IMG/VR virus record: IMGVR_UViG_2671180676_000003
DNA length: 45,001 nt
Direction: 5' to 3' (one strand)
Origin: a virus
Taxonomy: Duplodnaviria > Heunggongvirae > Uroviricota > Caudoviricetes
The translations under genes were made by a program, and so were the position numbers. Every line of letters starts with the position of its first letter. Positions within the stretch are counted from its first letter, which is position 1. Shown here in pieces: positions 1-43,453 of this stretch. Under the pieces are notes generated by a model. The model worked only from the letters and a program-made list of their open reading frames with translations. It searched no databases and was not told the origin of the DNA.

Positions 1-191
1 ACAATGCCTGTGTGGAAAGCTTCTTTCATTCGCTGAAGGTGGAATGTATCCACGGGGAACGCTTTAGCAGCCGGGAAATAATGCGGGCAACGGTGTTTAA
101 TTATATCGAGTGTGATTACAATCGCTGGCGTCGTCACAGTGCCTGTGGCGGTCTCAGCCCGGAACAATTTGAAAACCATAATCTCGCTTAG
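1..191 (+). CDS. IS3-family transposase OrfB (integrase core), C-terminal fragment; 5' end off-window
   Basis: Open frame from the window edge to TAG at 189-191; C-terminal sequence typical of IS3-group transposases. Confidence 0.8.
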
Positions 192-713: not shown

Positions 714-780
714 CTTCTTTCTCGATAGGTAAGTAAATACCTATTTTTGCATTTGATTTTATGTCTGGCAATCAAATAAA

Positions 781-5548: not shown

Positions 5549-5719
5549 AAAAACCTCACAAAGATAAGTAACCACTTATTCATTACGTGAGTTTACATTT
5601 ATTGAGAGAACAAGGCCAGATAGATAAAAAAATGGTGGCCATAGGCCACCAAAAACGAATAGTTGTTTCAGGAATTTAACGCGCCAATACAATATACATA
5701 GATAGATAACTACCTACAA

Positions 5720-6589
5720 TTATTTTTTGATCATTCCGTACATTGCTGAGGCTTTAGCTTGCTCAACAAAGGAGGATAAATCGACATCACTATAGGTTGG
5801 AGACTTCAGAATCTTTCCATCGGAAATTCGAAAACCGATCATCTTATCGGTACCATCAGCATGGCGAAATCCCAGGTCTGAAGAGTCGTATTTGCAGTTG
5901 GCCACAGCCTGGCGACGTTCCTCTACATCAGCAGGCCATAATTTTGTCATGTTAGACCGATGAATTTCGCCAACCAGCTCGACTACATTGATACCGAGGA
6001 AATCAGCCAGTCGATAGGTCATCATGCACGCCACATAGATTTTGTTCATGACACGGCGCAGTTCCTGAATCAGCTCAGAATCCTTAACAGTCTTGTTCTC
6101 AAGTTTATCTGCCAGCTCTTCGAGCATACATGACGCCTCACGAGCTTCCTGAAATGGCATTGCCATATCATCGAAAACAGTGTTACCGGGCACAAAAATT
6201 GTCTGCATAAAGCGATCAATGCTCTGTTCCTGCGTGTAATAGGTCATGCCGGTAGAAATACCACCTTTGATGGCGACCATCGTACCAACACCAACGTATA
6301 AAAAGTCGGCCATTGCATCCAGCAGTTGCTCAATATCCCCATTCATTGCAGCTGGAATACCTTCCACTACAGCTTCTTCATGAATCAGGCTTGCACGGAG
6401 ACGAAGCAGCTCTGGTGTCGGCATAACGCGTCTCGGATGCTGGAAGAGTTCATGAAACTGATCGACCATCTTGTAAATACTTTCAGTGGCTACACCATGG
6501 CCTTCATGCAACTCATATGGTTCTGGCTTAAATCCAATGAGTCGATCGGTGGCAAGTTTCAGGTGGTCAGTCAGTTTGGTAAAGTTCAT
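5720..6589 (-). CDS. Hypothetical protein (possibly all-alpha nucleotide pyrophosphohydrolase-like)
   Basis: 289 aa; E-rich helical motifs (LIHEEAVVEG, DIEQLLDAMADF) and a nucleotide-metabolism neighbourhood. The functional guess is weak. Confidence 0.45.
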   Translation of the reverse strand: MNFTKLTDHLKLATDRLIGFKPEPYELHEGHGVATESIYKMVDQFHELFQHPRRVMPTPELLRLRASLIHEEAVVEGIPAAMNGDIEQLLDAMADFLYVGVGTMVAIKGGISTGMTYYTQEQSIDRFMQTIFVPGNTVFDDMAMPFQEAREASCMLEELADKLENKTVKDSELIQELRRVMNKIYVACMMTYRLADFLGINVVELVGEIHRSNMTKLWPADVEERRQAVANCKYDSSDLGFRHADGTDKMIGFRISDGKILKSPTYSDVDLSSFVEQAKASAMYGMIKK

Positions 6590-10230: not shown

Positions 10231-10303
10231 GTATCACCAAATAAAGAGGGCCACTAAATATAGTGGCCCATGTTAATAGATAAGCACTTACCTATCAATG
10301 AAA

Positions 10304-10873
10304 TCAAATGAGAGACTTAAGAACATCGCGCACCTGGCGGAACTGATCTGTTTGCATACCGGTATGGATGGCAGCCACCGCATCAGCCAAATGTTCGTTT
10401 TTGTTCACGAGAACATCCTGTCCAGATTGCTTACGACGCAGCCACGGTGCTTTAGGGTGTTTTTTCGTAGCCCACTGGATAATCTCTTCTTTCGATGTAG
10501 TAAGTTTATTGCCGACAAAATGCTTGATTTCGTTTGGAGTAACCTGGATCAATGGCTTATCCACACACGCAAGTACACCGATACAAATACCGTAAGACGT
10601 CTGCGAACGAGAGTTTTGGCTCCCAACCGGTAGCTCACAAAAAACCATATTTGCCTTATCAATGATTGGCTTCGCAACACGCCATATTTCACTGGCTCGG
10701 CGCAGATCGTCACTGTTCACACGAACGGTCTTTTTGTTACTCCCCGCTTTAGTCTCAACAAGAGTAAGGCCGTGAATCTCAAGTTCGTCCGTCTCAAGGT
10801 CTAAAGTGCCCACAGCAAGCCCAAAGTTGCTCATTGAGGGATCAACACCAACTACGCTGATTTTTTTACTCAT
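10304..10873 (-). CDS. RuvC-like Holliday junction resolvase (RNase H-fold nuclease)
   Basis: N-terminus KISVVGVDPSMSNFGLAV resembles the RuvC ILGIDPGSRVTGYGV catalytic start; downstream E and HLADAVAAIH motifs match the RuvC acidic pattern. Confidence 0.6.
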   Translation of the reverse strand: MSKKISVVGVDPSMSNFGLAVGTLDLETDELEIHGLTLVETKAGSNKKTVRVNSDDLRRASEIWRVAKPIIDKANMVFCELPVGSQNSRSQTSYGICIGVLACVDKPLIQVTPNEIKHFVGNKLTTSKEEIIQWATKKHPKAPWLRRKQSGQDVLVNKNEHLADAVAAIHTGMQTDQFRQVRDVLKSLI

Positions 10874-14862: not shown

Positions 14863-15116
14863 GTGTTTTTCCTTTGTGGTTATTTTGATACAAATTTTAA
14901 GAGCAATGAGAAGGTAAACAACTATGCATAACGGTATGTTAGGAATGAAACGAGCGTCTTAATATACAAAATTTATAAGTAAGTATATACCTATTTATTG
15001 TGGCGCAACTTTGCTTGTCTGTATGACTAAAAATAAGACAGGATCACTGTAGAACGCTATGAGAGCTATTTTGAGGAGGCGTAGATTCTATCTACGCCAA
15101 TATACGATCTGGAGGG

Positions 15117-17177: not shown

Positions 17178-17709
17178 TATGCTGTCAGCGGTGAAATGTA
17201 TGCTATCAGCGGCTATTTTTCTGAAAAGTATGCTGTGAACGGTTAAAGATATGCTACCAGCGGTATAGTGAGATGAACGTATGCTGTGAGCGGTAAATCA
17301 TCTATCACCACTCAATGCTCTGTCATACCTCCCCAGTGGTTACTAACCTCGAAGAGTGCATTCCATATAGGTTTGCGCTCACTAACATTCTATTGCTATT
17401 GCGCTGATTGCTTGTAGTGAAAGGCATTTATTGCCTGCTACTCCCTGATAGAACGTATGCTGTCAGCGGTGTTTTATTGAGGAATTTTTGTTTGGATATG
17501 CTATCAGCGGTAATTAATGGCATATGTCAGACATTCGTATGCTGCCAGCGGTAATTTTGTTCTGGTTATACCCATACCGGTACACATTATTCATGCAATG
17601 TCTTAAGTATGCTGTCAGCGGTAAAAAATCGAGTAAAGTATGCTGTGAGCGGTGAGATAGACTCTCGATATGCTATCAGCGGTAGTTGATTGTGTATGCT
17701 GTCAGCGGT
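17178..17709. repeat. Downstream iteron array (about 12 copies of the TATGCTGTCAGCGGT family)
   Basis: Copies at about 17178, 17199, 17230, 17251, 17280, 17456, 17497, 17537, 17617, 17638, 17668 and 17695 with minor variants (ATCAGCGG, GTGAGCGG, CCAGCGG); irregular spacing. Confidence 0.8.
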
Positions 17710-17756
17710 GACGACTATGAAATATGACTGCGGAACGTGCCGCAGTCAGTTTGCAT

Positions 17757-17969
17757 TTAGTGTATTTTCTTTAACAGACCCCAAAGTGTTCCGGCTTTTG
17801 TAGTCAGTTTTCCTGTTTCTGGATCGTACATACGCCATTCACGCCGCTGGTGGACGATATACCCATCTTCACGTTCCAGACGCTCAAGAATGCCAGGCTG
17901 CTTGAAACCCTTAGCACGCCAGTAGCCGCTTGTTTTCTCGATTTCCAGACCTGCCAGTGTTAATGCCAT
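17757..17969 (-). CDS. Hypothetical protein
   Basis: 70 aa ORF; start overlaps the stop of the upstream gene. Confidence 0.4.
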   Translation of the reverse strand: MALTLAGLEIEKTSGYWRAKGFKQPGILERLEREDGYIVHQRREWRMYDPETGKLTTKAGTLWGLLKKIH

Positions 17970-18304
17970 TACCCAACCTCCTTGCAGTCATCGAAAAGGT
18001 AGCTTTGCTGAGAAGCGTGAACGCCATAGAAGCCCTTGTATTTGTTGTATACGAAGTGGTCTTCTCCGACGCCGGTTAATTTGCCATTACGATTTGTGAG
18101 ATATGGGGATGACAACACTCGATCGTCACGCACAACATAGAACTGGTCGCCGCTGTCTACGACCATCGCTCCATATGGTGCTTTTATGACGTCGGTAAGA
18201 GCGCCATTCTTAACGTCGGCTACAGACATTTCACACTGATAAACAGTGGTGTCGGCCACAACGATCGAAGAAAGAAACAACAGCGCGAATGGGATGGTCT
18301 TCAT
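17969..18304 (-). CDS. Hypothetical secreted protein
   Basis: 111 aa with an N-terminal signal-peptide-like segment (MKTIPFALLFLSSIVVA). Confidence 0.5.
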   Translation of the reverse strand: MKTIPFALLFLSSIVVADTTVYQCEMSVADVKNGALTDVIKAPYGAMVVDSGDQFYVVRDDRVLSSPYLTNRNGKLTGVGEDHFVYNKYKGFYGVHASQQSYLFDDCKEVG

Positions 18305-18480
18305 GCTGCCACCTCTTTGATTACATCAAATGCTGAATTAAATACGAGCACGATAGCCAAAGCGTTTATGACTACGTCGTGCACCGGGGAAAAGACTTTA
18401 CGAATGACACCAGTGAAAATGCAGTCGATGACAAAAGCTATTGAAACGATGAGTAACAAGTATTCAATAAAAATCTTCAT
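18301..18480 (-). CDS. Hypothetical small membrane protein (59 aa; below the ORF-track cutoff)
   Basis: My own translation: MKIFIEYLLLIVSIAFVIDCIFTGVIRKVFSPVHDVVINALAIVLVFNSAFDVIKEVAA. Its stop overlaps the next gene's ATG as ATGA. Confidence 0.4.
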   Translation of the reverse strand: MKIFIEYLLLIVSIAFVIDCIFTGVIRKVFSPVHDVVINALAIVLVFNSAFDVIKEVAA

Positions 18481-18519
18481 GATAGGTAGATACTAACTTA
18501 TATAAACTTTACTGTAAAC

Positions 18520-18795
18520 TCACTCAAAAGTGCTGATGCTTAAAATACGCTCAAGATGTTCAGCATCTTCATTACTGATTTGTTGAGTCTCTTCTACGTA
18601 CCAACAGTTGCCGTTATGCCAACAAACACCATCATCATCAACCATCACTGAATCAGCGTCATGACCTGTATATTCAACAAGAGTACGCTGGATCAGCGCG
18701 TCAGTTTCTTCATCGTTAAGGCCATCGACTTTGACCATAAAAAGCGGAAACACGTCATAGACAGTGCTGGTAACGATTCGAACTAAAACTCTCAT
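18520..18795 (-). CDS. Hypothetical acidic protein
   Basis: 91 aa ORF. Confidence 0.45.
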   Translation of the reverse strand: MRVLVRIVTSTVYDVFPLFMVKVDGLNDEETDALIQRTLVEYTGHDADSVMVDDDGVCWHNGNCWYVEETQQISNEDAEHLERILSISTFE

Positions 18796-18850
18796 GTGTT
18801 TTTCCTTTTGTGGTTAGTGTTTACTTATTTTGTTAGTTATGAATAGGCGA

Positions 18851-19276
18851 TCAATCTTCTTGGTTAGGGAAAAACTGTTCAATAACTCTGTCAACGGCTG
18901 TGTCTATATGGAGTAGATGCCACACAACCATATCTTTGCTTCCCATGCCTTGTGTGAATATCACGTCATACTTACGCCATGCGCAGTGGAACCAATATGC
19001 TGAGTCATCAATTGGTAAATCCTCTCCCGCCTCTTTGAAGTATTTCAGCAGCATTGCCTGCTCTGCCGTTGGCGTTGGACCTATTTCCTGAGCGTACATA
19101 CGGATGAATCGCTGCCAGTCTGTCTCGTCGGGGGTTGGATCTGGTGGGGGCATTTCTGCGATAGCGTTTCGTAGCTGATGCGCCCAATCAGGTTCAGGAA
19201 AGCCTTTTGCTACTTCATCATCAATAACATCCAGAGCCACGTTTGCGGCATCGTAGAGTTTCTTAATAACTGTCAT
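18851..19276 (-). CDS. Hypothetical protein
   Basis: 141 aa ORF. Confidence 0.5.
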   Translation of the reverse strand: MTVIKKLYDAANVALDVIDDEVAKGFPEPDWAHQLRNAIAEMPPPDPTPDETDWQRFIRMYAQEIGPTPTAEQAMLLKYFKEAGEDLPIDDSAYWFHCAWRKYDVIFTQGMGSKDMVVWHLLHIDTAVDRVIEQFFPNQED

Positions 19277-19323
19277 GTTTTCTTATCCTTTTAAACAAAT
19301 TGTTTTCTTAATAAGATAATTGC

Positions 19324-19350
19324 GATAAAAAAGGCGTCCAACTGGACGCC
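19324..19350 (-). terminator. Intrinsic terminator
   Basis: GGCGTCC-AACT-GGACGCC hairpin followed on the minus strand by TTTTTTATC, just 3' of the SPFH gene. Confidence 0.5.
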
Positions 19351-19367
19351 TGAACTTTTTAGGGGAG

Positions 19368-20198
19368 TTATTTCACTGTAATGAAAGGAGTGTTAGCCCC
19401 TTGAGTCATGTACTGCGGTAACTGGCCATTCCATTTATTGATGGCTTCCAGCTCCATAACGTTCGGGTTTTGACGCAGAGCTTCACCGCGCAGACGAATG
19501 GCGTCGGCTTCTGCTTGCGCACGAGCACGGATAGCATCAGCTTCACCATTAGCCTGTTCACGTAGCATATTCGCCTCAGCTTTACGCTGTTCAACTTCCT
19601 GCTGACGTTGCAGAGTACGCTGGTTAGCCGTTACTTTGGCGTTGATAGATTCAATGACGGTTTTTGGGTAATCAGGCTTTCCAACCCATGACAGGCTCAG
19701 TACCTCAATACCAACCGGAGACATCTCTTTCTGAATATCTTTCAGTGCGTTGTCCAGCAATTGCGCCTTACCACCGTCGATAAATGAGTCAGTGGTCATA
19801 CGGCTGGCCAAACGGTTTAGAGAGTCGGCAATTTTCTGACGCAGATCTGATTCGGTGATATCGTCTACGCCTTTGCGATAGGTCTGGAACACCGTCGTTA
19901 CCTTGTCACGATTAACCAGATACGCAACGCCAATTTTGTGACCAATAGCAGTACCGTCACTCATCTGGAATGTGAACGGCTCGTCGTAGGTCTTCATTTG
20001 TTTGAAGGTCGGGAATACGTAAAGTTCGGTGTTAAGACCTGTCCATTGGCGACCAACGCCAACCACTTCACCGATCCCTTTGTCTTCACCTAATTTGTTT
20101 ACTTTGATGCCAACGTATCCAGGCTCCACGCGATCACAGCCAGTAAGACCCATTGTGCAAATAGCCGCCAGAGCAACTGCAAGTAAACCTTTCTTCAT
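19368..20198 (-). CDS. SPFH/band-7 (prohibitin/HflKC-like) domain lipoprotein
   Basis: Signal peptide with lipobox (LTGC); band-7-like core and a C-terminal coiled coil rich in AEA/RAQ repeats. Confidence 0.7.
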   Translation of the reverse strand: MKKGLLAVALAAICTMGLTGCDRVEPGYVGIKVNKLGEDKGIGEVVGVGRQWTGLNTELYVFPTFKQMKTYDEPFTFQMSDGTAIGHKIGVAYLVNRDKVTTVFQTYRKGVDDITESDLRQKIADSLNRLASRMTTDSFIDGGKAQLLDNALKDIQKEMSPVGIEVLSLSWVGKPDYPKTVIESINAKVTANQRTLQRQQEVEQRKAEANMLREQANGEADAIRARAQAEADAIRLRGEALRQNPNVMELEAINKWNGQLPQYMTQGANTPFITVK

Positions 20199-20201
20199 TA
20201 C

Positions 20202-20402
20202 TTATTTCCCCTTTGCTTTGATTAATGAGTTGATAAACTTACGACCAGCAATAAGACCGATTACAGGAGCACCAAAACCAACGATAACTCCAAACATGAC
20301 GGCTAAATCACTCTTGGTAGAAATCAGCGACGGAACCAGTAAACCGTAGATGAGAGCCACTGAAAGGCCTGTGGCTACTGCCAATAGATAGATTTTGATC
20401 AT
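20202..20402 (-). CDS. Small two-helix membrane protein, likely partner of the SPFH protein
   Basis: 66 aa, two hydrophobic segments; immediately upstream of the SPFH gene; sigma70-like TTGAAA-N17-TATTAT upstream. Confidence 0.5.
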   Translation of the reverse strand: MIKIYLLAVATGLSVALIYGLLVPSLISTKSDLAVMFGVIVGFGAPVIGLIAGRKFINSLIKAKGK

Positions 20403-20463
20403 GTGTTTTCCTATGTGGTTGTTATGCGAAAATAATAAGTAAGTACTTATATATTTTCAAGAG

Positions 20464-20490
20464 ATAAAAAAGGCGTCCTGTGGACGCCTT
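20464..20490 (-). terminator. Intrinsic terminator
   Basis: AAGGCGTCC-TGT-GGACGCCTT hairpin followed by a T-run on the minus strand, 3' of the RecA-like gene. Confidence 0.5.
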
Positions 20491-20494
20491 GTGT

Positions 20495-21568
20495 TTACTC
20501 TTCTACTGACTCGGTGGGGTTGTCTTTTGCTCTTCGGTCGTCGATTGCCTGCAAAGCCGCAATGATTTCAGCCAGTGGCTTCTCCCGATACATCTCGACG
20601 ATCTGCGATTTGGTGTATTTCTTGTCACCAATTTCAACTCGCCCGCTGGCGTTCTTTGGCAGGTATCCTTCTTCCAGCATGTACTCGACGAGCGATTCGA
20701 TAACGTCGAGGCCACGAGTAGGATCGAAGTAGAATTTCCAGGTGCATTTGCCATACGGTGGTGCAACTTTGTTTTTGATGCATTCTGCGCCTACGTCCTG
20801 GCCGATCTTCTCTTTACCATCCTTCATCACCGATGCACCAAGACGGATACGTACAGAAGCGTAGAACTTCGGTGAATCTCCACCTGGCGACGTAGTAGGG
20901 TCGCCAAACATTACACCGATTTTTGTGCGAACCTGATTCAAGAAGATGATGCAGGCGTTGTATTTGCGTGCCCACAAAGCCAGAGTAGGGAAGTTCGCAC
21001 TTGTCGCACGAGCCAGTGCCGTATTGTCGTTCATGTTTAGCTGATCTTTGTCTTTGGCAGTGCCTTCAGCCATCTTTTCGAACTTCTCGGCTTTGGAGTT
21101 CGGAACCATAGACGCAAGTGAGTCAGCCACGATACAGATAGGTGCTGATTCAGGGATAAGCTCTTCATCACGTACCAATTTAAGTATTGTGCCGATCAAC
21201 TCTACAGAGTCTTCGAAGGTGTCAGGCTGCTTGTATACCCACTGACCGTCATCCTCATCTGCGTTCAGGCCATTGGCTACAGCCAGGCCAACGTCAAAAC
21301 TGTTTTCATGATCGAGGAATACCGCCAGACCATCTTGTTTTTGAGCGGAGATCATCGCTGCTGTTGCAAGGAACGTTTTCCCTGCACTTGGAGGACCGAA
21401 TACTTCGACGATACGACCACATGGGAAGCCGCCATCGTAACGACCAGAAATAGCTTTGTTTAACGGTGGAAAGCCTGTATCAATCCAATGAGTTACTTTC
21501 TGAATTTCGTCGTTGCTACCGATTTTCTTTTTCAGAGCAAGTGCCAGTGCGGATTTTCCTTTTGCCAT
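20495..21568 (-). CDS. RecA-family recombinase
   Basis: GRIVEVFGPPSAGKT Walker A in RecA-like context; 357 aa. Confidence 0.85.
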   Translation of the reverse strand: MAKGKSALALALKKKIGSNDEIQKVTHWIDTGFPPLNKAISGRYDGGFPCGRIVEVFGPPSAGKTFLATAAMISAQKQDGLAVFLDHENSFDVGLAVANGLNADEDDGQWVYKQPDTFEDSVELIGTILKLVRDEELIPESAPICIVADSLASMVPNSKAEKFEKMAEGTAKDKDQLNMNDNTALARATSANFPTLALWARKYNACIIFLNQVRTKIGVMFGDPTTSPGGDSPKFYASVRIRLGASVMKDGKEKIGQDVGAECIKNKVAPPYGKCTWKFYFDPTRGLDVIESLVEYMLEEGYLPKNASGRVEIGDKKYTKSQIVEMYREKPLAEIIAALQAIDDRRAKDNPTESVEE

Positions 21569-21570
21569 GA

Positions 21571-21843
21571 TCAGGCTCCTTTTGTTTCGTTGATTCGTTT
21601 TAAAGCGGCGGATTCATCGAATACAATCGCATCGTGGTTAAGGAGTCTGGATACACGAGCGAGGATTTTTACGACCTGCTCGCTGACTAATCCAAACTCG
21701 CGATCTGTCGCTTTCATTCCGGCAGCGCCTAGAATTGACGGCAGTGCGATGACAGCGTACTCACCGTGATAAAAGACAATCTCTTTTGCCAGTTGGGCAG
21801 GGGTGGTTGTAGCGCCATTGATAATCGATTTAAGCATTAGCAA
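21571..21843 (-). CDS. Hypothetical protein
   Basis: 90 aa ORF positioned for translational coupling between the FEN and RecA-like genes. Confidence 0.4.
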   Translation of the reverse strand: MLMLKSIINGATTTPAQLAKEIVFYHGEYAVIALPSILGAAGMKATDREFGLVSEQVVKILARVSRLLNHDAIVFDESAALKRINETKGA

Positions 21844-22781
21844 TACCTTTCGAATGGAAGAACAAACACTTCAAGGTCTTCAAGGAACGAACGGAAATTC
21901 AGCTCGTAGCACAGTTGCTCGAATGCTTTCACGTCACGATTGCCTTTGATTGTTTCGATTTCGGTAGGCGGAAACTTCGTCTCAATCAGGTTCATTAGCG
22001 TGATGTTTCTCTTGAACGCTTCGAGCATTCGACAGCCTGTTTTCTCGTTGAAGGCATTCTTCGCTAGTTTGTTGAAGGCGGTCTTATGACGCCCTTTATT
22101 AACCACGATTGAGCCGTCGTTGATGCCGCGTACCATCGTTGCGACACTTCCCCATTCATGCAGCAGCTCTTTCGCACCGCCAGCACCAATGCCACCAACA
22201 CCGCTAATGTTGTCCGAGTTATCGCCTTGTAATGCTTTTGCTTCCAAAAATGCGCGAGGCGTGGCGAATCCTGTCAGCTCCGCAAATTGCTCAAAATTAA
22301 CCTGCTTGTTTTTGGCGTCTTCACGCAGGCTTACCCAGCTTACGTTTTCGCGAACTAACTGAAGCCAGTCGCTATCGCCTGTTAACAGATAGATGTGTTC
22401 AACGGTTGGCTGCGGTGCCATGCGGGATACCAGCAGCCCGGCCAGATCATCCGCTTCTGCATCTTTTGCAATGATTTGGTTAACACCAAGCGCGGTCATC
22501 ATTTTGAGGATGTATGGCTTCTGGATAGCAAAGCCTTCCTTCATCTTTTTCATATCAGGATCGTCGTCGCGATTTGCTTTGTAGTCCGGGTAAAAGTCGC
22601 GACGCTTGTCACTAAATCCATCCCAAAGAATCATAGGTCGGGCATGGAGGATGGAGGCATAACGACGGACGTTCTTAACAAAGCCGAAAGCAGCCTGTAC
22701 TTCCATTTCGCCGTTGTGCAATTTGTCAGATTGTTGGTGGTAATAACCCAGGCTATTGCCATCTACGAAGAGATAATTCAC
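21837..22781 (-). CDS. 5'-3' exonuclease / flap endonuclease (T4 RNase H and T5 D15 class)
   Basis: NYLFVDGNSLGYY N-terminal motif and helix-hairpin-helix GDNSDNISGVGGIGAGGAKEL. The track's GTG start at 22832 sits inside the upstream terminator hairpin, so I place the start at GTG 22781 with AAGGA upstream. Confidence 0.8.
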   Translation of the reverse strand: MNYLFVDGNSLGYYHQQSDKLHNGEMEVQAAFGFVKNVRRYASILHARPMILWDGFSDKRRDFYPDYKANRDDDPDMKKMKEGFAIQKPYILKMMTALGVNQIIAKDAEADDLAGLLVSRMAPQPTVEHIYLLTGDSDWLQLVRENVSWVSLREDAKNKQVNFEQFAELTGFATPRAFLEAKALQGDNSDNISGVGGIGAGGAKELLHEWGSVATMVRGINDGSIVVNKGRHKTAFNKLAKNAFNEKTGCRMLEAFKRNITLMNLIETKFPPTEIETIKGNRDVKAFEQLCYELNFRSFLEDLEVFVLPFERYC

Positions 22782-22799
22782 CGGTACATTCCTTCCAAA

Positions 22800-22828
22800 A
22801 AGTAAGGCGTCCGTAGACGCCTTACTGG
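22800..22828 (-). terminator. Intrinsic terminator
   Basis: GTAAGGCGTC-CGTA-GACGCCTTAC hairpin followed by TTTT on the minus strand, 3' of the SSB-like gene. Confidence 0.45.
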
Positions 22829-22841
22829 TCACGTAATGGGA

Positions 22842-23870
22842 TTACAGAGAGTCCAGCTCTCTCAGTAGGTCATCCAGACCTTCATCTTCCGTCGCAGATG
22901 CGGTTGCTACAGATGTCGCTGCGACTGCTTCAGACTCTTTGACTGATACGGCAACGGCAGCGGAACTTGCCTCTGGTTTAAATTCAGTTTCAACGGCACG
23001 GAGGATTTCTTCATCAACCAGACTGGTTGGTTCAGAAGCCGGTGTGTGCGCGGTTGCTACAGCCGTCGCTCCTTCTGTATGACCAGTGACAGAGCCAAAT
23101 CCAGGTAGTGCCGCAGCCGATGTTTTCGCGGTTGAGGAAATTGCTGGTGCAGATGCTGCGGCAGTTGGTGCAGCGATGCCAATCAGACGACCCATAGTGC
23201 GAACTGTCGACAGAAGACGAGTTTCATCAGCCTGATTTGCGTATGCGATCAGATCATGCTGGGTGTTCCAGAATTTATCTTCGATATCGCCTTTGTAGAC
23301 TTTACGCTTAGGCGAGACGTCATATTTGGTATCGCGACCAGAGCCAGTACGTTTAATCAGGAATGCGTAGCCTTCCTCTTTGCTCAGTGGATTGCCGATA
23401 TCATCAGCGATGTCTTCGGTGATTGCTTTGCAGATATCATCGAATACAGTAGACGGCAGCTCGATTAACTGGCATTTCTCAGCATCTGCGAAATCCTCAC
23501 GAGCAGAAAGAATGCCGTTGACCAGGTAGCGAGGAGTGGCACGCATTTGACCGATGCGTTCTTCCATTGCTTTGTTACCCTTGTGACGAGCGCGACCTTC
23601 CATCACCATTTCGCATAGCTGACAAGCGCGACCGTGAGTATGTTGCTCACAAATATAAGCGTTGGTTGCTTCTTTACCTTCCTCGTTCTGATACTTAACG
23701 TAGTGCATACCGAAAGTCTGGAAGAACTTACCGTTTGGGTCGTCTTTATTCGGGAAGATGCGGATATAGTTGACGCCGTCTTTTAAACGAGTCAGATCAA
23801 CGTTGTTGCCACGTTTGGCGGCAATGTCTTCACGAGTTTTGTTAAGCAAATCAAGTAATGTCTTAGACAT
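22842..23870 (-). CDS. Single-stranded DNA-binding protein, T4 gp32-like
   Basis: Zinc-site-like C-x2-H-T-H-G-x3-C-x2-C (CEQHTHGRACQLC) resembling gp32 CSSTHG..CPVC; Ala/Ser-rich linker; acidic C-terminal tail (EDEGLDDLLRELDSL). Confidence 0.65.
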   Translation of the reverse strand: MSKTLLDLLNKTREDIAAKRGNNVDLTRLKDGVNYIRIFPNKDDPNGKFFQTFGMHYVKYQNEEGKEATNAYICEQHTHGRACQLCEMVMEGRARHKGNKAMEERIGQMRATPRYLVNGILSAREDFADAEKCQLIELPSTVFDDICKAITEDIADDIGNPLSKEEGYAFLIKRTGSGRDTKYDVSPKRKVYKGDIEDKFWNTQHDLIAYANQADETRLLSTVRTMGRLIGIAAPTAAASAPAISSTAKTSAAALPGFGSVTGHTEGATAVATAHTPASEPTSLVDEEILRAVETEFKPEASSAAVAVSVKESEAVAATSVATASATEDEGLDDLLRELDSL

Positions 23871-23987
23871 GTGTTTCTCCTTGTTGTGATTTGGCCGATG
23901 GCGCTATGCGCGTTGGGCTTTCGTTCATTCGTGGCTCTTTCGAGCTGTTAAATGATAGATCAGTACTTACTTATTATCTATCAAAAA

Positions 23988-24419
23988 TCAACGGGGAGTA
24001 ATAAAGCGTTCAGAGCCTAATCGCTCTAATTCAACGATAGCCATCTTCGACGCCTGAACGATCATGTCTCGGCGATGCGAAAAGGCGGCGACAGCATGTT
24101 TGTATATGTCTGCGATGTGCCGTGCTTCATCCAACTTCTGCCGTTTAGACAGATACTGTGGGTTTGTTTTAACCTTAGCGTCTAGTACAGATTCGTTAAA
24201 CTTAATGCCGTTCATACTCAAGTTTTTACGCTCTGTGTCGTATAGCTTTGCTTCAACAGCTTCAAGGTTAAGTTTTGCCTCTGCGACACTTCTTTCTGCA
24301 TGGGCGAGCTTTGAACCATACTCCATCAACAGGCGAGGTTGTTTACGCCAGACGTCTTCCAGATTGTCTCTGTCAAACTCGAGATCAGACATTATTTTCT
24401 CGTAAATATCGGTGTTCAT
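23988..24419 (-). CDS. Hypothetical protein (possibly UvsY-like recombination mediator)
   Basis: 143 aa helical protein directly upstream of the gp32-like and RecA-like genes; size and position are the only support. Confidence 0.3.
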   Translation of the reverse strand: MNTDIYEKIMSDLEFDRDNLEDVWRKQPRLLMEYGSKLAHAERSVAEAKLNLEAVEAKLYDTERKNLSMNGIKFNESVLDAKVKTNPQYLSKRQKLDEARHIADIYKHAVAAFSHRRDMIVQASKMAIVELERLGSERFITPR

Positions 24420-24547
24420 ATTGATATGCTCAAACTTACTTTCGTGTATCTGATTATATCAAACAAATAGAGCTTTACTGTCATGATTGGCGGTAGACAG
24501 TATCGGCGCTAAGGTGCAGAATCAGGAGGTACACCGAGCAAAGCAAA

Positions 24548-25546
24548 TTGAGAATAAAACCAATGGATAAGGCTAACAAACAAGTCAAAGCAACAAAGTC
24601 AGTGCCGACTAAAAAAACAGCCCTCCCCCCAAAAGCTAAGTCTGTAAAGCCAGCGGCAGAAAAGAATAAAACTGAAGGTATGACATATCCGAAAACCAGT
24701 GCGGATGGACACGCTGGAGAGTACTTGTTTGCCTATTGGATTTCTCGTTATTTCAGATGGCCTTGTCGATTGCTAGATATTGATATGGGATTGGATGCTC
24801 AGGTTGAAATATATGAAAATAATCTTTCGACAGGTTTTTTTATCGGCGTTCAGATAAAAACCACCTCACGCAAAATGAAGAGAAGGTTAAGCGTACAAAT
24901 ACCTTATAAAAATATAACCTATTGGGGAAGTTGTGATTTTCCTGTGGTAATTGTTTTGATATGCCTACACGATGATAATGAATTAGACGAACCTGCTATT
25001 TATTGGAAGCATTTAGATAAAAAAACAATTTCTAAAATAAAGGATAAAGCATTAAGAAGTGACTCTGGATGTGCTCCTGTAACTTTCAATAAGGATGATT
25101 ATCTGTCTGAATGGGCAGACAAACCAAAGTGGGTCGACATGTGGCTTACAGAAGAAGATAAAGAGATAATTGAGCTTGCAAAGCGAGTAAACAAGACGTT
25201 GCTAGAGATAGGTGTTCCTCTTGATAAATTCGGAGACGAGTATGACCGCAGCACCTACCTGTGTAGCCCTGAGCGGGTAGTACCAGACTTGAACTCTATG
25301 ATGAATGAATATGAAAAAATAAATAACCATATACGTGTAAAGCGTCGATTAGTAGAATTCGATCCTGTAGTGTCGATTTGTTCACAAAATTATGAAAAGT
25401 ATCTACCTAAAATCCTTGAATATTTTGAAGATGTGGTCGCACGTAGTGTCGGTTCATACTCGATTGCAGAACATTTCGAACCATACAGTGATCGTAATCA
25501 TATTCTGAATCGAATAATTATAGAGAAAGCCCCTAATTCAAGATAG
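24548..25546 (+). CDS. Hypothetical protein with Lys-rich N-terminal tail and PD-(D/E)xK-like nuclease core
   Basis: Plus-strand gene in a minus-strand block, AT-rich. Motif GEYLFAYWISRYFRWPCRLLDIDMGLDAQVEIYEN...FIGVQIKTT fits a D..D/E..E.K restriction-endonuclease-like pattern. Start is TTG 24548 or ATG 24563. Confidence 0.5.
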   Translation: MRIKPMDKANKQVKATKSVPTKKTALPPKAKSVKPAAEKNKTEGMTYPKTSADGHAGEYLFAYWISRYFRWPCRLLDIDMGLDAQVEIYENNLSTGFFIGVQIKTTSRKMKRRLSVQIPYKNITYWGSCDFPVVIVLICLHDDNELDEPAIYWKHLDKKTISKIKDKALRSDSGCAPVTFNKDDYLSEWADKPKWVDMWLTEEDKEIIELAKRVNKTLLEIGVPLDKFGDEYDRSTYLCSPERVVPDLNSMMNEYEKINNHIRVKRRLVEFDPVVSICSQNYEKYLPKILEYFEDVVARSVGSYSIAEHFEPYSDRNHILNRIIIEKAPNSR

Positions 25547-35651: not shown

Positions 35652-36473
35652 ATGACTATCCTTGAAAATCCTGATGCGAATGTTGAATCTGTTTATAGTC
35701 TTCATCCAACCACGTTGTTTCATTTTACAAAAAACGAAGATGCTTTCTATAGCATATTGGCTGAGAAATATTTTAAACCATTTCTTGCTCGCGAGGAAAT
35801 AAGAGGAGTCGGGGGACGTAGGAGGTTTGCAGTACCAATGGTATCGTTTTGTGACATAAAACTATCACAAATCAGAGATCATAGCGGAAAATATGGAGAA
35901 TTCGGTCTTGGGCTAACTAAGTCTTGGGCGGAAAAGAAAGGTCTACACCCAGTTCTATATATGAATAAGAGTAGTGAAATATTTTCTAAATACAATGCCA
36001 GAATTCGACTTATTAAAAATAAGTTGGTGCCGCTTTGGAAGGCTAGAGGAAATTTAGATACCAAAAACAGAATAGAGTTTGAGAAATTGAAAGCAGAATA
36101 CTCTGATCTATATAATTTACTGCGTTATATGAAAAATTACAGAGGCAAGCTAGAGCGAAAAGATAATAAAACAATAGAGAATTATATATATGCAGACGAG
36201 AAAGAGTGGCGTTATGTGCCAGCTCCTTTTATTGGTGATTTATGGCCTAGTCTGAGTTTGGAGCGTGTTATCACTTCTGATGACAAAGCAAAAATTAGCT
36301 CAGAATTTTCAAAGTTTGGCATTGATTTTGAGTTCAATGATATAAAATATATACTTATACCTAAAGAACAACATATCCAAAAGCTAATTAACTTTCTCTC
36401 AGGTTTAGATGGATTTGAATCTTCAATTATTAGCAAAATTCTGACCATGGATAAAGTAAAGCAAGATTTTTAA
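35652..36473 (+). CDS. Hypothetical protein, gene A of AT-rich two-gene cassette (candidate defence/abortive-infection component)
   Basis: 273 aa from ATG 35652 (AAGGTG Shine-Dalgarno; the track start GTG 35607 is less likely). About 33-35% GC by hand count against roughly 45-50% for backbone genes. Conserved-looking N-terminal block LHPTTLFHFTK...AVPMVSFCD...GEFGLG. Confidence 0.6.
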   Translation: MTILENPDANVESVYSLHPTTLFHFTKNEDAFYSILAEKYFKPFLAREEIRGVGGRRRFAVPMVSFCDIKLSQIRDHSGKYGEFGLGLTKSWAEKKGLHPVLYMNKSSEIFSKYNARIRLIKNKLVPLWKARGNLDTKNRIEFEKLKAEYSDLYNLLRYMKNYRGKLERKDNKTIENYIYADEKEWRYVPAPFIGDLWPSLSLERVITSDDKAKISSEFSKFGIDFEFNDIKYILIPKEQHIQKLINFLSGLDGFESSIISKILTMDKVKQDF

Positions 36474-36499
36474 TTTTTGGTTTAACGGGAGCCTAATTA

Positions 36500-37711
36500 G
36501 TGTCAATATTTTTAAGCGAAAAGGAAATGCAAAATTGGATAATTGACAAATTATCTGATCAAGATGGATTATATAATTCAATCATCAATATTGATAAATT
36601 AAACGAATTTAATCCGAAAAGACCCGAAGAGAAAAAAATTAAGGAGAGTTATCAGTTTTGTTTAAAGAACATAACATTGTTACATTTAATGACAGATGAT
36701 GAGAATATCTCAGCAACAAAATCTGAGATATTAAGACCTGATGTTGTTGCTTATTCAACAGAGAATGAATCCTTAGTTCTTATTGAGTTAAAAAACTTTT
36801 CAACACCAACAAGGGAAGCTGGAACTGAGTTGGTGGCATATGCTGCGGAACTAAAAAGTTACTTGTCATACTTGTCTGATGGAGATATTACCAATGTACT
36901 TATATCACCTGACTGGCCACCCCTGGTTAGACACTTTATTTTTAATATGATCGTGTGGCAGAAGAAAAACTTTCTATGTTTAGAACCTTGCTATGATTTA
37001 CAAGGTAACGTATCACTTACTCCTTTAGATATTAATAAATTAGTTATTGCGGAAGAAGCACTCAAGTTCTCATTTCGTCATCTTGGTGGGTTTCATATAT
37101 GTTTGTATGATGATGAAATGTATAATAAACCGACTTCAACTTCTCGTTTACATTCGAAATTGAATGTTATTAAAGCCAGCATGGCAAAAATGTCCTCAGA
37201 CGGTGAAAAGACTAATAGCCATGGGTTTGCTATTTTATGTAGAAATTTGAATGAGAGAACTTTAGCGCCATATACGATTACTCTAGTTAATGTTTCTGCG
37301 TTTTCTTCCATAGAGCGATACTTTCATTCGCCACAAATATCCAATGCTTCTCAACTCCCTAGAATAGGACAAAAAATTTATGACATTTACACTCATTACC
37401 AACCATCAGGTTTTGGGGCATCAATGTCGAAAATTTACAATTCTGGGAAGGCATATTTAGAAAAAATTAATTGCAAGCCGCGGATCGAGGTTATAGACAC
37501 CTGGGATGTATTGCAAGCACATACACATGCGCCTTATATGGAAATGGTTCATATTGAAACGTGGGGAGTTTTTAAAGAAAAATTGATTGAAGGTCTAAAT
37601 GAATGTTATGAGGATGAATATTACACACCTGATTTTGACGATGTAGATTTTTGCATGGTGTGTATTGAATCCTTAATTGACCAGAATTATGAATTTATAA
37701 AACTTTTTTGA
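36500..37711 (+). CDS. Hypothetical protein with N-terminal PD-(D/E)xK nuclease motif, gene B of AT-rich two-gene cassette
   Basis: 403 aa; GTG start 26 nt after the gene A stop, with GGGAG Shine-Dalgarno; motif ILRPDVVAY...ESLVLIELKNF fits PD...(D/E)xK; same AT-rich composition as gene A. Confidence 0.6.
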   Translation: MSIFLSEKEMQNWIIDKLSDQDGLYNSIINIDKLNEFNPKRPEEKKIKESYQFCLKNITLLHLMTDDENISATKSEILRPDVVAYSTENESLVLIELKNFSTPTREAGTELVAYAAELKSYLSYLSDGDITNVLISPDWPPLVRHFIFNMIVWQKKNFLCLEPCYDLQGNVSLTPLDINKLVIAEEALKFSFRHLGGFHICLYDDEMYNKPTSTSRLHSKLNVIKASMAKMSSDGEKTNSHGFAILCRNLNERTLAPYTITLVNVSAFSSIERYFHSPQISNASQLPRIGQKIYDIYTHYQPSGFGASMSKIYNSGKAYLEKINCKPRIEVIDTWDVLQAHTHAPYMEMVHIETWGVFKEKLIEGLNECYEDEYYTPDFDDVDFCMVCIESLIDQNYEFIKLF

Positions 37712-38446: not shown

Positions 38447-39237
38447 AATTCAGCACTGCCAGTATTTATTACTCAACAGTGCCAATCGCGGCGGTGTTAG
38501 TTTCTGCCAGGAAACGCACCGCTACTTGCACTTTTCGTTAGTGCCAGACGTTTTCGACTTCGCTCAATAGAAGGCAAAATCTTTAAGTAGATGATGTTTT
38601 TTGAGGACAGCACCTACTTTGTAATTTATACAATGTGATGTATGGAATCATTTGTTGTGAAAACAGGCACCAATGGCAACAGTGGTTAAACCTACACAAC
38701 AATCCTGTCTTCACAACGTTGAGGCCACTACTCCGATTGAATGTTTGCCCAACATGTTACATATCAACGCTCGCCTGTATCTCTGTGAATAGAACCTTAG
38801 AATTGATAAAAATGTAATGGCCTCAACGTTGTGTGCTGGCTAACCATACCAGCCGGGCTACGTCGCCGCTTTTTAACCCAGTATAAACGACATAATTGAA
38901 CAAAATGACGTAACAGGATGGGCGGTCAGAGGCTAAGAATCCGGGAGTCATATGGAGTTGAAAATATACCAACCGCCCATTCTGTTACTTCATCGAATAG
39001 GGCATAGTGGTTTGGCTGTCTATGCCCTATCCTGCGTTCTGCAATCACACTCGCTCAGTGTGTCCCATTTCGGTAACGAGGCTGGAAACTGACCTCGCTG
39101 GTGTTTGGCTTATTAGGCTACTGCCAGATAGACTTCTTCGTTTGCACTTGTATTTAAGTTCAAACAGTCGCGTCTCAACGAAAACAAAGTCATCTTATAC
39201 ATAAAAGATAAGTAAGTAAATACTTATCACCATGTTT

Positions 39238-39528
39238 TTATTCGGTTGTGCCTTTTTTGATCAAGGCCACTCTACGACTAGGTGTTCTTGTGATGGTGGC
39301 AGTGAATCGTTTCGCTTGGATAGTAATGGTTTCGTTCTCCTTAAGTTGCCCGTAGCGAGTTTCAACCAGGGTGCCAAGACGCCACAGACCATCATCGATA
39401 CGTTTATGACTAGCAAATTTAATCAGCAACAGTTTTACGACTAACTGACCTACGTAAAAGGCGAATGCGACTCCGGCCGCTAAGAAATAGGTGGCCAACC
39501 ACCAGTCCCAAGAAGTTAAATTGCTCAT
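39238..39528 (-). CDS. Hypothetical membrane-anchored protein
   Basis: 96 aa; N-terminal hydrophobic helix (WWLATYFLAAGVAFAFYVGQLVV). Confidence 0.45.
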   Translation of the reverse strand: MSNLTSWDWWLATYFLAAGVAFAFYVGQLVVKLLLIKFASHKRIDDGLWRLGTLVETRYGQLKENETITIQAKRFTATITRTPSRRVALIKKGTTE

Positions 39529-41371: not shown

Positions 41372-41838
41372 TGTTGTTTTGCCTCCATATGTTGATCGAT
41401 TTGCTCATGTGTTTCTTTTGTTGTTTCTTCAAGCAACGCCGCATACACGTCAGTGATCGCTGTTTGTGATGTGGCGCTCTTCTTAACCATGCTACTAATC
41501 GTTACACTGTCACGTTTTCGTTTTATAGTTCTGGCTTGTTTATTCCGTTCTTCAACCTCCTTAATGAGTGCGGTCATATCTTCGAAATACAGAGATTCTC
41601 CTTTACGAATCTCTTCAACCATCATTTTTAACGCCTTGCATTTGCCTGCTTTAATAGCGGTTGCGCACGACTGGAAAGAAGTTCGAGGAAGACGGTTTTC
41701 TTTGAAGGCAAGAATGGTGTGCTGGCAAACGGAATAGCTGCAATATGCCGACTCACCGTTTATCTTTACTTCCTCACAACGAAGTGAATAACCGTTATTT
41801 CCTGAAATAGAAGGGATTTTTGACAAATCAGCTTTCAC
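41368..41838 (-). CDS. Hypothetical protein
   Basis: 156 aa; its stop overlaps the ligase ATG as ATGA; promoter-like motif 20 nt upstream. Confidence 0.5.
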   Translation of the reverse strand: MKADLSKIPSISGNNGYSLRCEEVKINGESAYCSYSVCQHTILAFKENRLPRTSFQSCATAIKAGKCKALKMMVEEIRKGESLYFEDMTALIKEVEERNKQARTIKRKRDSVTISSMVKKSATSQTAITDVYAALLEETTKETHEQIDQHMEAKQQ

Positions 41839-41904
41839 AATTACCGCCAGAAATAATCTTGTGCTTACCTATCATTATTTGCGTAAAAACGACACACAGA
41901 GAGC

Positions 41905-42681: not shown

Positions 42682-42806
42682 ACCAACTCCTAGCTAACAG
42701 ATGAAAGTATTCTTACAAAAAACTAAGTATGTATCTACTTATCATTTTAGGCGCAATAGTTCCCTATACGAAGATGCCGGGCTTATAGTCTGCCCGGCAT
42801 TCACCA

Positions 42807-43220: not shown

Positions 43221-43453
43221 GTTGGCTTCCCTTTATTTATATTTATCGCAGGTATTAGTTAATCAAAACACGAGCAGTGCCACAATAATTAAATGGCGTA
43301 CTATTTCTTATGGTTATTAGTTTCCTAGTAACTTTACCGACCATAAACTAAATCAACAAAGCTGACATATTAACTAAATTTAAGTACCATTTTTCGCACA
43401 CTTGACACTTGCCGCGTCTAAACTGTTCATCCTATATCAACAGAACAAAAAAT

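Follow-up and report, generated by a model that had tools for sequence, protein, structure and literature searches.

A motif of about 20 bp lies upstream of the thymidylate synthase gene (positions 5561-5584) in the viral DNA analysed here (IMG/VR record IMGVR_UViG_2671180676_000003, Caudoviricetes; 45,001 nucleotides, hereafter the window) and recurs upstream of many other minus-strand genes. In a first-pass annotation it was proposed to be an element-specific promoter or operator, which raises the questions of which of the two it is and which protein reads it. The data presented below favour an operator. As judged from sequence comparison, it is fairly likely that the motif is an operator through which an SSU5/pHCM2/pMT1-type phage-plasmid controls a genome-wide lytic regulon, with an XRE-type protein encoded in the window as the most likely repressor. 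The closest relatives of the window by megablast were Escherichia phage CMS-2020a (97% identity), Cyrano (94%) and Salmonella phage SSU5 (81%). Cyrano is a plasmid prophage of E. coli LF82 (PMC9928086), and the DnaE protein of the window is 100% identical to that of the E. coli plasmid NZ_CP157149. By its sequence, the window belongs to the SSU5/pHCM2/pMT1 group of phage-plasmids. It corresponds approximately to the reverse complement of Cyrano 31-78 kb, with most genes on the minus strand, and comprises the replication and nucleotide metabolism arm, including genes for a helicase, a primase, a ligase, tRNAs and an integrase, cobT/cobS, dnaE, recombination genes, repA, sbcCD, nrdAB and the thymidylate synthase gene.

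Symmetry and frequency of the motif

Near-identical copies of the motif, all in the same orientation, had been listed at eleven places. The motif was recovered at all eleven by matrix scoring and inspection of the sequence, but the copies are not near-identical: the literal consensus AAGTAAGTNCTTACCTATCAT matched at just three places in the window with up to three mismatches. Two of these matches were located on the minus strand, which was the first sign of a palindrome. A position matrix iterated on both strands picked each site twice, 4 nt apart, and a symmetric 28-bp matrix was used thereafter. After re-centring, a 20-bp core composed of the half-sites ATAGGTAAGT and ACTTACCTAT was found, frequently extended to aaTGATA...TATCAtt. 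The motif is an imperfect palindrome of 20 to 28 bp, (aaTG)ATAGGTAAGT-ACTTACCTAT(CAtt), and not an oriented 20-mer. A common orientation is meaningless for a palindrome; the plus strand scored best at about half of the sites and the minus strand at the rest. Both halves are equally conserved: with the sites oriented by transcription, the information content was mirror-imaged position by position. No conservation was detected beyond 14 nt on either side of the palindrome centre, and no fixed -35 or -10 was found outside the motif. A division into two spacing classes (16 and 20 bp) was tried and rejected; the sites at 5560 and 20431 can be accommodated in the 20-bp frame if one half is taken as weaker.

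With the symmetric matrix, 14 sites in the window scored at least 14 and 17 scored at least 10, compared to 0.1 and 0.27 in first-order Markov shuffles (0.1-0.9 expected overall), so that the motif occurs far above expectation. While the eleven places listed earlier were real, the site at 18478-18505 and two weaker ones at 5698-5725 and 18805-18832 had been missed. Weak matrix matches at 25315, 32040 (inside cobT) and 43949 are probably due to chance.

Pairing between the two halves (Watson-Crick or G-U) amounted to 7.18 out of 10 positions over 67 distinct sites, compared to 7.45 ± 0.09 with the halves shuffled among sites. Some sites (41849 and 30709) possess one good half only. The absence of compensatory covariation and the independent conservation of each half argue for a double-stranded DNA site for a symmetric dimer and against an RNA hairpin. 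We know of no match to the Fur, FNR, LexA, NrdR, T4 MotA or T4 late motifs beyond short words. Text searches, in which the motif strings retrieved unrelated primers, found no literature description of the motif or of SSU5-type regulation; a prior description elsewhere is possible.

Genomic placement and conservation across genera

Matrix sites were found in all relatives analysed, with 20 to 26 in Cyrano, 23 in SSU5 and 18 in Klebsiella phage ST13-OXA48phi12.3. A Klebsiella plasmid with a DnaE only 65% identical carries 23 sites, with the consensus slightly shifted to GATAAGTAAGTATTTACTTATC. The sites are located in orthologous gaps across these four genomes. Although 87% of the Cyrano genome is coding, 19 of its 20 site centres fall between genes (binomial P = 3e-16). 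Many sites follow a stop codon by 0-40 nt, and 2-160 nt separate their ends from the start codon of the next gene. It had been stated that the copies always lie 12-110 nt upstream of a gene start. Close upstream placement was indeed observed in the window (1-112 nt from core to start codon), but not without exception, as 39204-39231 lies about 750 nt before a tRNA cluster. In the late arm, copies are found in the gap between the genes for the large terminase (TerL) and the portal protein. Further copies lie close to where the portal gene ends and upstream of the genes for major tail, minor tail, tail-fibre and holin proteins. The TerL/portal site overlaps the stop codon, and its flank carries the portal ribosome-binding site. 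The gap between the divergent uvsW and parB genes holds a weak copy (Cyrano 105103). When IMG/VR was scanned for the exact pattern, 119 stretches were retrieved, mostly on contigs of 60-113 kb, which is the size range of the SSU5 family.

Two open reading frames (ORFs) had been predicted with N-terminal extensions reaching over the motif, and these extensions are probably artefacts, as suspected in the first-pass annotation. The start of the thymidylate synthase gene is set to 5548 by the equal length of the Cyrano and SSU5 orthologues. The 72-amino acid ORF at 35359-35577 begins at an ATG inside the aATGATA of the palindrome; the ATG at 35501, preceded by a ribosome-binding site (AAGGA-N6-ATG), is the probable true start.

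A cognate palindrome, ATCAGTCAGTACTGACTGAT (with ATCAGTCAGT and ACTGACTGAT as its halves), occurs in about 30 copies in the AB-type Acinetobacter baumannii phage-plasmid NZ_CP156934, the DnaE and XRE proteins of which are 40% and 40-48% identical, respectively, to those of the window. It was matched 37 times with up to six mismatches, compared to 3.7 times in shuffles. The copies are intergenic, occupy equivalent junctions between genes and include one at the terminase/portal junction and three around the XRE gene. Gene-directed promoter scores, obtained as described below, showed a modest effect at the Acinetobacter sites (8.6 versus 7.3, p = 0.04). No description of this dispersed palindrome was found in the literature.

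Overlap with predicted sigma-70 promoters

Promoters were scored at 63 sites from four genomes by weighted -35 and -10 hexamers with a spacer of 15-19 bp, from -40 to +45 of the palindrome centre. The mean best score was 8.8 in the direction of the gene, with 41 of the 63 sites reaching at least 8, and 6.4 in the opposite direction, where 13 did so (paired Wilcoxon p = 1.8e-7). Lower values were obtained for all controls: 4.3 for random positions, 6.5 for the consensus palindrome in random flanks and 5.45 for 63 motif-less intergenic gaps upstream of Cyrano genes (Mann-Whitney p = 5e-5 versus the site promoters). The directional promoter signal is therefore real and not created by the palindrome itself. 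Hexamers such as TTGAAA, TTGATA, TTTACA or TAGATA at a spacing of 16-17 bp are found at many sites and are conserved between orthologues; good -35 hexamers at 17 bp spacing (TTGAAA, TTGATA) are present in about a third of the sites. The pair TTGAAA-N17-TATTAT had been quoted correctly and lies on the minus strand at 20460-20432.

Palindrome and promoter overlap in several registers. In the first, the -10 begins 7 or 10 nt right of the centre, so that the palindrome takes up the spacer and reaches into both hexamers (10298-10270 and 20460-20432). In the second, the -10 begins 20-24 nt right of the centre and the right half, TTTACY, forms the -35 (39204 and 35551), while in the third it begins 14 nt left of the centre and the palindrome covers +1 (721). 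The register varies between sites over a range of more than 30 bp, but is kept between orthologous sites. The pair of nrdA promoter and operator is kept in Cyrano, SSU5 and both Klebsiella elements. Overlap with the core promoter in several registers corresponds to the geometry of a repressor and its operator; for an activator, a single position at a constant distance upstream would be expected.

Of the two roles proposed earlier, that of an operator is favoured by the symmetry and by the promoter overlap in several registers. A role as promoter in itself is not, since no conservation at a fixed distance was found outside the palindrome and a -10-like hexamer (TAnnnT, 7 nt from the centre) is present on the gene-distal side in 38 and on the gene-proximal side in 36 of the 63 sites. 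Being equally common on both sides, TAnnnT appears to belong to the symmetric recognition sequence rather than to act as a directional -10. We infer that the motif is very likely a protein-binding operator overlapping lytic promoters, and that it is likely used for repression rather than activation.

The XRE protein as candidate binder

The XRE protein had been named as a candidate regulator, and by sequence it appears to be the best-supported candidate binder on account of its distribution, its expression in the lysogen, its deletion from SSU5, a motif core at its own promoter and its helix 3. We give it a slightly better than even chance of being the protein that reads the motif. It is the only recognisable regulator encoded in the window and is 100% identical to CYRAN_45 of Cyrano, a 'putative repressor'. 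The protein matches PHROG 8 ('transcriptional regulator', E 1e-11); a search of PDB sequences yielded no match at E <= 1. In an AlphaFold2 model (predicted local distance difference test, 71), a five-helix N-terminal domain (helices 12-65) is seen, the fold of which matches C.AhdI, SinR, HigA, P22 C2 and the 434 repressor with template modelling scores of 0.65-0.78 and root mean square deviations of 1.5-3.6 Å. The helices that follow this domain in the model could serve dimerisation.

The XRE gene was detected by tblastn in 865 PLSDB plasmids, including pHCM2 of S. Typhi and pMT1 of Y. pestis. Its distribution follows that of the family DnaE almost completely, with counts (XRE/DnaE) of 348/348 in Klebsiella, 230/232 in Escherichia, 92/94 in Enterobacter, 63/63 in Yersinia, 49/49 in Salmonella and 25/25 in Citrobacter, and it adjoins the integrase gene in nearly all plasmid rows listed. 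In the transcriptome of the LF82 lysogen (PMC9928086), the expression of 14 Cyrano genes exceeds background, and CYRAN_45 is one of them (10-fold). Thirteen of these 14 genes are without the motif, the exception being CYRAN_81.

Among phage records, the XRE gene is missing only from SSU5, which may be strictly lytic, and from one truncated record. Up to the tRNA-Asn gene, SSU5 matches Enterobacter plasmids at 98-99% identity; cobT then follows, revealing a deletion of about 7.6 kb (SSU5 42596-42761). In pECL-90-1, the missing segment (17683-25366) encodes a divergent 70-amino acid gene product, the XRE protein, the integrase, a toxin-antitoxin pair, GrxA and PhoH; all 823 plasmid relatives possess this segment. 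As the junction was found in none of 823 related plasmids and the flanks are 98-99% identical, SSU5 appears to be a recent derivative from which the putative repressor module was deleted, and the recent date of the deletion would explain why its operators are still intact. SSU5 was isolated as a free phage and is used for biocontrol (PMC10972627). Since it propagates without the XRE gene, the XRE protein is not an activator needed at the motif promoters.

The predicted promoter of the XRE gene is directly followed by GGTAAGCACTTACC, the sole perfect core palindrome in the window. When this intergenic region was aligned among the window, pHCM2, pMT1 and two Klebsiella elements, promoter and GGTAAGCACTTACC together stood out as a conserved island against a mean identity of 62%. 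A core-only copy at +1 is the usual layout for negative autoregulation, and GGTAAGCACTTACC is presumed from its sequence and position to be a weaker, core-only autoregulatory operator. The predicted recognition helix 3 of the XRE protein is near-invariant in the SSU5 group (N-A/P-N-N/I-L/I-S-L-I-K, homologues 45-66% identical), and reads R-P-N-V-L-S-M-I-K in Acinetobacter compared to N-A-N-N-L-S-L-I-K.

A gene for a 70-amino acid protein (32957-33169, minus strand; PHROG 2627), divergently oriented to the XRE gene, shows conservation in pHCM2, pMT1 and Enterobacter; a small divergent gene resembling it is found in Acinetobacter. A half-site, TATAAGTAAG, is located just upstream of the gene in the window, at 33179-33193. 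The 70-amino acid protein may be a Cro-like or anti-repressor partner.

Other candidate regulators encoded outside the window (CYRAN_37, Cra and CYRAN_112/113/116/117/123) gave no domain matches in a Pfam screen, and the small ORFs of the window matched only PHROGs of unknown function. SSU5_121/CYRAN_114 (Cyrano 100780-101301, minus strand), labelled 'transcriptional regulator/repressor', was identified as a full-length FljA (PF03614, E 1e-80) and set aside as a DNA binder, since this is an RNA-binding family. FljA of Salmonella is an mRNA-binding translational repressor of phase-1 flagellin; the phage-plasmid copy might silence host flagellin.

Proposed mode of action

In the proposed mechanism, a symmetric dimer of the element-encoded regulator would recognise each palindrome as double-stranded DNA. 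The operators would sit on sigma-70-type promoters heading about 20-25 transcription units, 12-14 of them in the window, which comprise DNA metabolism genes as well as virion and lysis genes. With the palindrome on the spacer, the -35 or +1, RNA polymerase would be kept off by a bound dimer. As long as the element persists as a plasmid (lysogeny), the whole lytic programme would be silenced from about 25 dispersed sites, and the weak core-only operator at its own promoter would cap the level of the XRE protein. Once the repressor is lost or inactivated, all units would open together.

Several points weigh against this mechanism. Every promoter is a consensus prediction, and at some sites (41849, TerL/portal) no convincing promoter was found, so that another role, for example as a roadblock, or decay would have to be assumed there. 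If early and late units share one operator, it is not explained how the late genes are timed. Concerning the XRE protein, the Pfam HTH_19 match (E 8e-4, 19.7 bits) is below the curated cut-off of 30.2, and the fold matches of the model have weak E-values. The contrast in lysogen expression is not significant alone, with a site at one of nine expressed compared to 20 of 72 silent genes. The operator difference between Enterobacterales and Acinetobacter is small, essentially GTAAGT versus GTCAGT, and represents two groups only. Finally, the centre of the palindrome, AAGT directly followed by ACTT, resembles the -22 box of the late promoters of phage P1, AAGT(G/T)ACTT-N4-TAnnnT (NC_005856).

An extended version of the mechanism is a single-tier lock on the whole genome, in which one XRE repressor would silence a phage-plasmid of 100-110 kb from about 25 identical sites, both at promoter operators and as an elongation roadblock at promoter-less late junctions such as TerL/portal. 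The positions of the sites would be kept to the level of single gene junctions, and operator and helix would co-evolve from Enterobacterales (pHCM2, pMT1, SSU5 and pKpn types) to Acinetobacter. This version is put forward tentatively, and we doubt that it holds in full.

Alternative explanations

The similarity to P1 leads to the alternative that survives best, in which the central AAGTACTT would be the box of an element-encoded activator near -20 and the outer TATCAT a -10. A symmetric element of similar size is known from P1, where one box serves two divergent late promoters (LP26/LPpmgL). TAnnnT at 7 nt from the centre, present on the gene-proximal side of 36 of the 63 sites, would fit such an arrangement, as would the presence of the motif before late as well as early genes and the silence of motif-bearing units in the lysogen. 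There are differences, too. The P1 late promoters, which are activated by Lpa, contain a central AAGTnACTT, compared to the uninterrupted AAGT-ACTT here, followed by TAnnnT a few bases on, and the distance from box centre to hexamer is 9 bp in P1 and 7.5 or 10.5 bp here. All 20 bp are conserved here, down to the 'spacer' GGT/ACC, where the P1 sequence varies freely, and the flanks are symmetric. The frequency of TAnnnT on the gene-distal side argues against a directional -10, the good -35 hexamers at about a third of the sites would be superfluous for an activator-dependent promoter, and registers differing by more than 30 bp are unlike those of an activator promoter. A core copy at +1 of the XRE gene's own promoter likewise speaks against an activator. 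No Lpa homologue was detected by tblastn in the window, Cyrano, SSU5, the Klebsiella or the Acinetobacter elements (best E = 1.4; remote homology possible). Overall, activator sites of this type are unlikely.

Rather less likely still are elongation roadblocks ('stoperators') or sites for another binder, for example the two ParB-like proteins in a KorB-like silencing. Short gaps often 0-40 nt past a stop codon, the TerL/portal site where no promoter fits, the number of copies, which at about 25 across the two arms resembles that of mycobacteriophage L5, and the weak copy in the uvsW/parB gap are in agreement with these possibilities. Most sites, however, coincide with directional promoters, and the sites are palindromic, in contrast to the asymmetric and orientation-dependent stoperators of L5. 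The ParB-like proteins show no link to the motif, whereas in two distant groups conserved copies accompany the promoter of the XRE gene. At a few promoter-less sites, the motif may act in a stoperator-like or ParB/KorB-like manner, but this does not account for the majority.

A function at the RNA level, as a stem-loop for processing, stabilising or termination or as the site recognised by an RNA-binding regulator, for example the FljA homologue, is very improbable. The palindrome is intergenic in long operons, some copies overlap ribosome-binding sites, and an FljA-family protein is encoded by the element. On the other hand, pairing is below that of shuffled halves without compensatory covariation, sites with a degenerate half (41849, 30709) are unable to fold, no U-tract is found at the palindromes, and start codons lie anywhere from 1 to about 160 nt away; it is the sequence and not the pairing that is conserved across genera. 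A promoter of a phage-specific polymerase or sigma factor (T7/SP6 class), for which one might cite the length and high conservation of the motif just upstream of many genes, sometimes too near the start codon for a normal promoter, is hardly credible given the two-fold symmetry without directional information, the normal sigma-70 hexamers alongside and the lack of any annotated RNA polymerase or sigma factor in Cyrano, SSU5 and the two Klebsiella elements.

Comparison with known regulatory systems

An operator read by the XRE protein would be most similar in its working to C1 of P1, likewise a phage-plasmid, in which one repressor acts on many dispersed operators at sigma-70 promoters (ref, ssb, ban, dmt, lpa, repL; NC_005856). 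The C1 operators are monovalent, and the promoter of the repressor gene itself carries operators, as proposed here for the XRE gene. They are, however, asymmetric 17-mers, ATTGCTCTAATAAATTT, unrelated in sequence to the palindrome of 20-28 bp described here, and no C1 homologue was found by tblastn in the window and five related elements (best E = 6). Furthermore, the late genes of P1 are controlled by Lpa and not directly by C1, whereas the same site is found here also before virion and lysis genes.

The second comparable system is that of the Cluster A mycobacteriophages. The stoperators of L5, which Brown et al. are said to have described in EMBO J in 1997, are reportedly 13-bp asymmetric sites for the repressor gp71 that lie in one orientation and block elongation. 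About 25-30 gp71 sites are distributed over both arms in short intergenic gaps and silence the whole genome in the lysogen, as proposed here. The sites of the SSU5 group differ in being palindromic, without strand preference and mostly overlapping promoters, and the host clade and the repressor family are, by description, unrelated. With the Cro/CI systems of lambdoid phages and P22, the element shares the five-helix helix-turn-helix domain (as predicted), a palindromic operator, a small divergent gene and, presumably, autoregulation; lambdoid phages have their operators grouped in one or two immunity regions, whereas more than 20 sites are spread over 100 kb here, and the XRE protein lacks an S24 peptidase domain. 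The element would thus work like the P1 C1 operators and L5 stoperators, but departs from both in defining features of sequence or homology.

If true, the regulation proposed would be a third independent example of silencing from dispersed operators after P1 and the Cluster A mycobacteriophages, without introducing a new principle. The SSU5/pHCM2/pMT1 family is common, with more than 800 PLSDB records from Klebsiella, E. coli, Enterobacter, Salmonella Typhi and Yersinia pestis, and its choice between plasmid state and lysis is essentially undescribed. What would be gained is a defined operator sequence, a map of lytic units and a named candidate for the master repressor, the loss of which, with its module, may explain the lytic behaviour of the type phage SSU5. 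The matrix could be used for recognising and annotating such elements, for mending start codons and for building inducible or locked derivatives.

Sites and further features of the window

The motif copies of the window are listed together with the XRE gene and its promoter in Table 1.

Table 1. XRE gene, its predicted promoter and motif copies in the window. Scores refer to the symmetric 28-bp matrix; promoters are predictions.
Feature	Position	Strand	Score	Location	Predicted promoter	Orthologous sites
XRE gene (XRE/Cro-CI-type helix-turn-helix protein, 128 amino acids)	33421..33807	+		adjoins integrase gene 33802-34905		
XRE gene promoter	33347-33374	+		followed by GGTAAGCACTTACC core at 33376-33389	TTTACA-16-TAATAT	
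Putative operator	721..748 (core 725-744)		28.5	11 nt before gene 219-713 (adenine methyltransferase homologue)	minus strand, TTGCCA(771-766)-17-AAAAAT(748-743); site spans region past -10 and around +1	Cyrano 77432, SSU5 77647, Klebsiella 50990
Putative operator	5560..5587		24.6	15 nt before thymidylate synthase start 5548		Cyrano 72591, SSU5 72507
Weak copy	5698..5725		15.0	overlaps stop codon of MazG-like gene 5720-6589		Cyrano 72454, SSU5 72353 (both weak)
Putative operator	10272..10299		31.2	between ruvC-like gene 10304-10873 and nrdA (start 10230)	minus strand, TTGATA(10298-10293)-17-TAACAT(10275-10270); palindrome fills spacer and overlaps both hexamers	
Putative operator	14971..14998		29.6	112 nt before sbcD-like gene start 14862		Cyrano 63195, SSU5 63076
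Putative operator	18478..18505		22.0	flank TATCATG holds ATG of ORF 18301-18480	TTTACA(18518-18513)-17-TAGTAT(18495-18490)	Cyrano 59395, SSU5 58070, Klebsiella 70916
Weak copy	18805..18832					
Putative operator	20431..20458		31.6	32 nt before gene 20202-20402	strong, TTGAAA(20460-20455)-17-TATTAT(20437-20432); palindrome forms spacer and first half of -10	Cyrano 57442, SSU5 55691 (TTGAAA-17-TATCAT)
Putative operator	23951..23978		31.6	84 nt before start 23870 of gene for gp32-like single-stranded DNA-binding protein	TAGATA-17-TATCAT (23980-23952)	Cyrano 52655, SSU5 52171, Klebsiella 74892
Putative operator, degenerate half	30709..30736		18.9	between cobT-like (stop 30750) and cobS-like (start 30654) genes		SSU5 45120
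Motif copy, best fit to earlier consensus	35551..35578		31.8	divergent gap between small ORF/glutaredoxin operon (minus) and AbiGi gene (35607, plus)	minus strand, TTACTT(35562-35557)-17-TATAGT(35539-35534); right half of site forms -35	
Putative operator	39204..39231		32.0	10 nt past stop of gene 39238-39528	TTTACT(39220-39215)-17-TAAGAT(39197-39192), facing tRNA cluster (Asn, Tyr, Thr, Ser; 38446-37889, minus)	Cyrano 38248, SSU5 41769
Motif copy, one good half	41849..41876		22.5	14 nt before gene 41368-41838	none convincing	Cyrano 35603
Putative operator	42719..42746		28.1	41 nt before gene 41905-42681		Cyrano 34726, SSU5 38174

Terminator-like hairpins on the minus strand are found at two of these sites. 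One (5651-5633) precedes the copy in front of the thymidylate synthase gene, and the other (10269-10248) starts directly after the predicted -10 of nrdA. Because of this position of its stem, the nrdA hairpin could halt read-through from upstream and yet be missing from transcripts that start at the nrdA promoter.

Three further features lie on the plus strand. A Sel1-repeat protein of 396 amino acids (43409-44599; six repeats, E 8e-53) is encoded opposite to the lytic genes and has no motif copy upstream. A DUF4365 protein (24548-25546) is encoded between dnaE and uvsY, in the slot occupied by HicAB in Cyrano; this slot looks like a variable hotspot for defence or toxin-antitoxin genes on the strand opposite to the lytic genes. 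The motif copy at 35551 is adjoined by an island of low GC content (35607-37711; 35-40% GC) encoding an AbiGi-family protein (PF10899, E 2e-24) and a partner of 403 amino acids. The island, which is without counterpart in Cyrano and SSU5, is likely an AbiG-type abortive-infection module.

Two hairpins with stems of 17-18 bp and an AT-rich loop, GACCTGCTTCTGTATATA-N21-25-TATATACAGAAGCAGGTC, are located at 31157-31213 and 78082-78140 in Cyrano. The pair flanks the entire early arm, and both copies lie just beyond the ends of the window. Similar AT-rich matches, by the matrix alone, are found at equivalent places in SSU5 and Klebsiella. The window opens (1-215) with the 3' end of an IS3-family transposase ORF (12-191, plus strand), adjoining the adenine methyltransferase gene 219-713. 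The product of the latter is 164 amino acids long, compared to 197 in Cyrano, and since the gene abuts the IS3-family ORF, it appears to have been truncated by the insertion sequence element.

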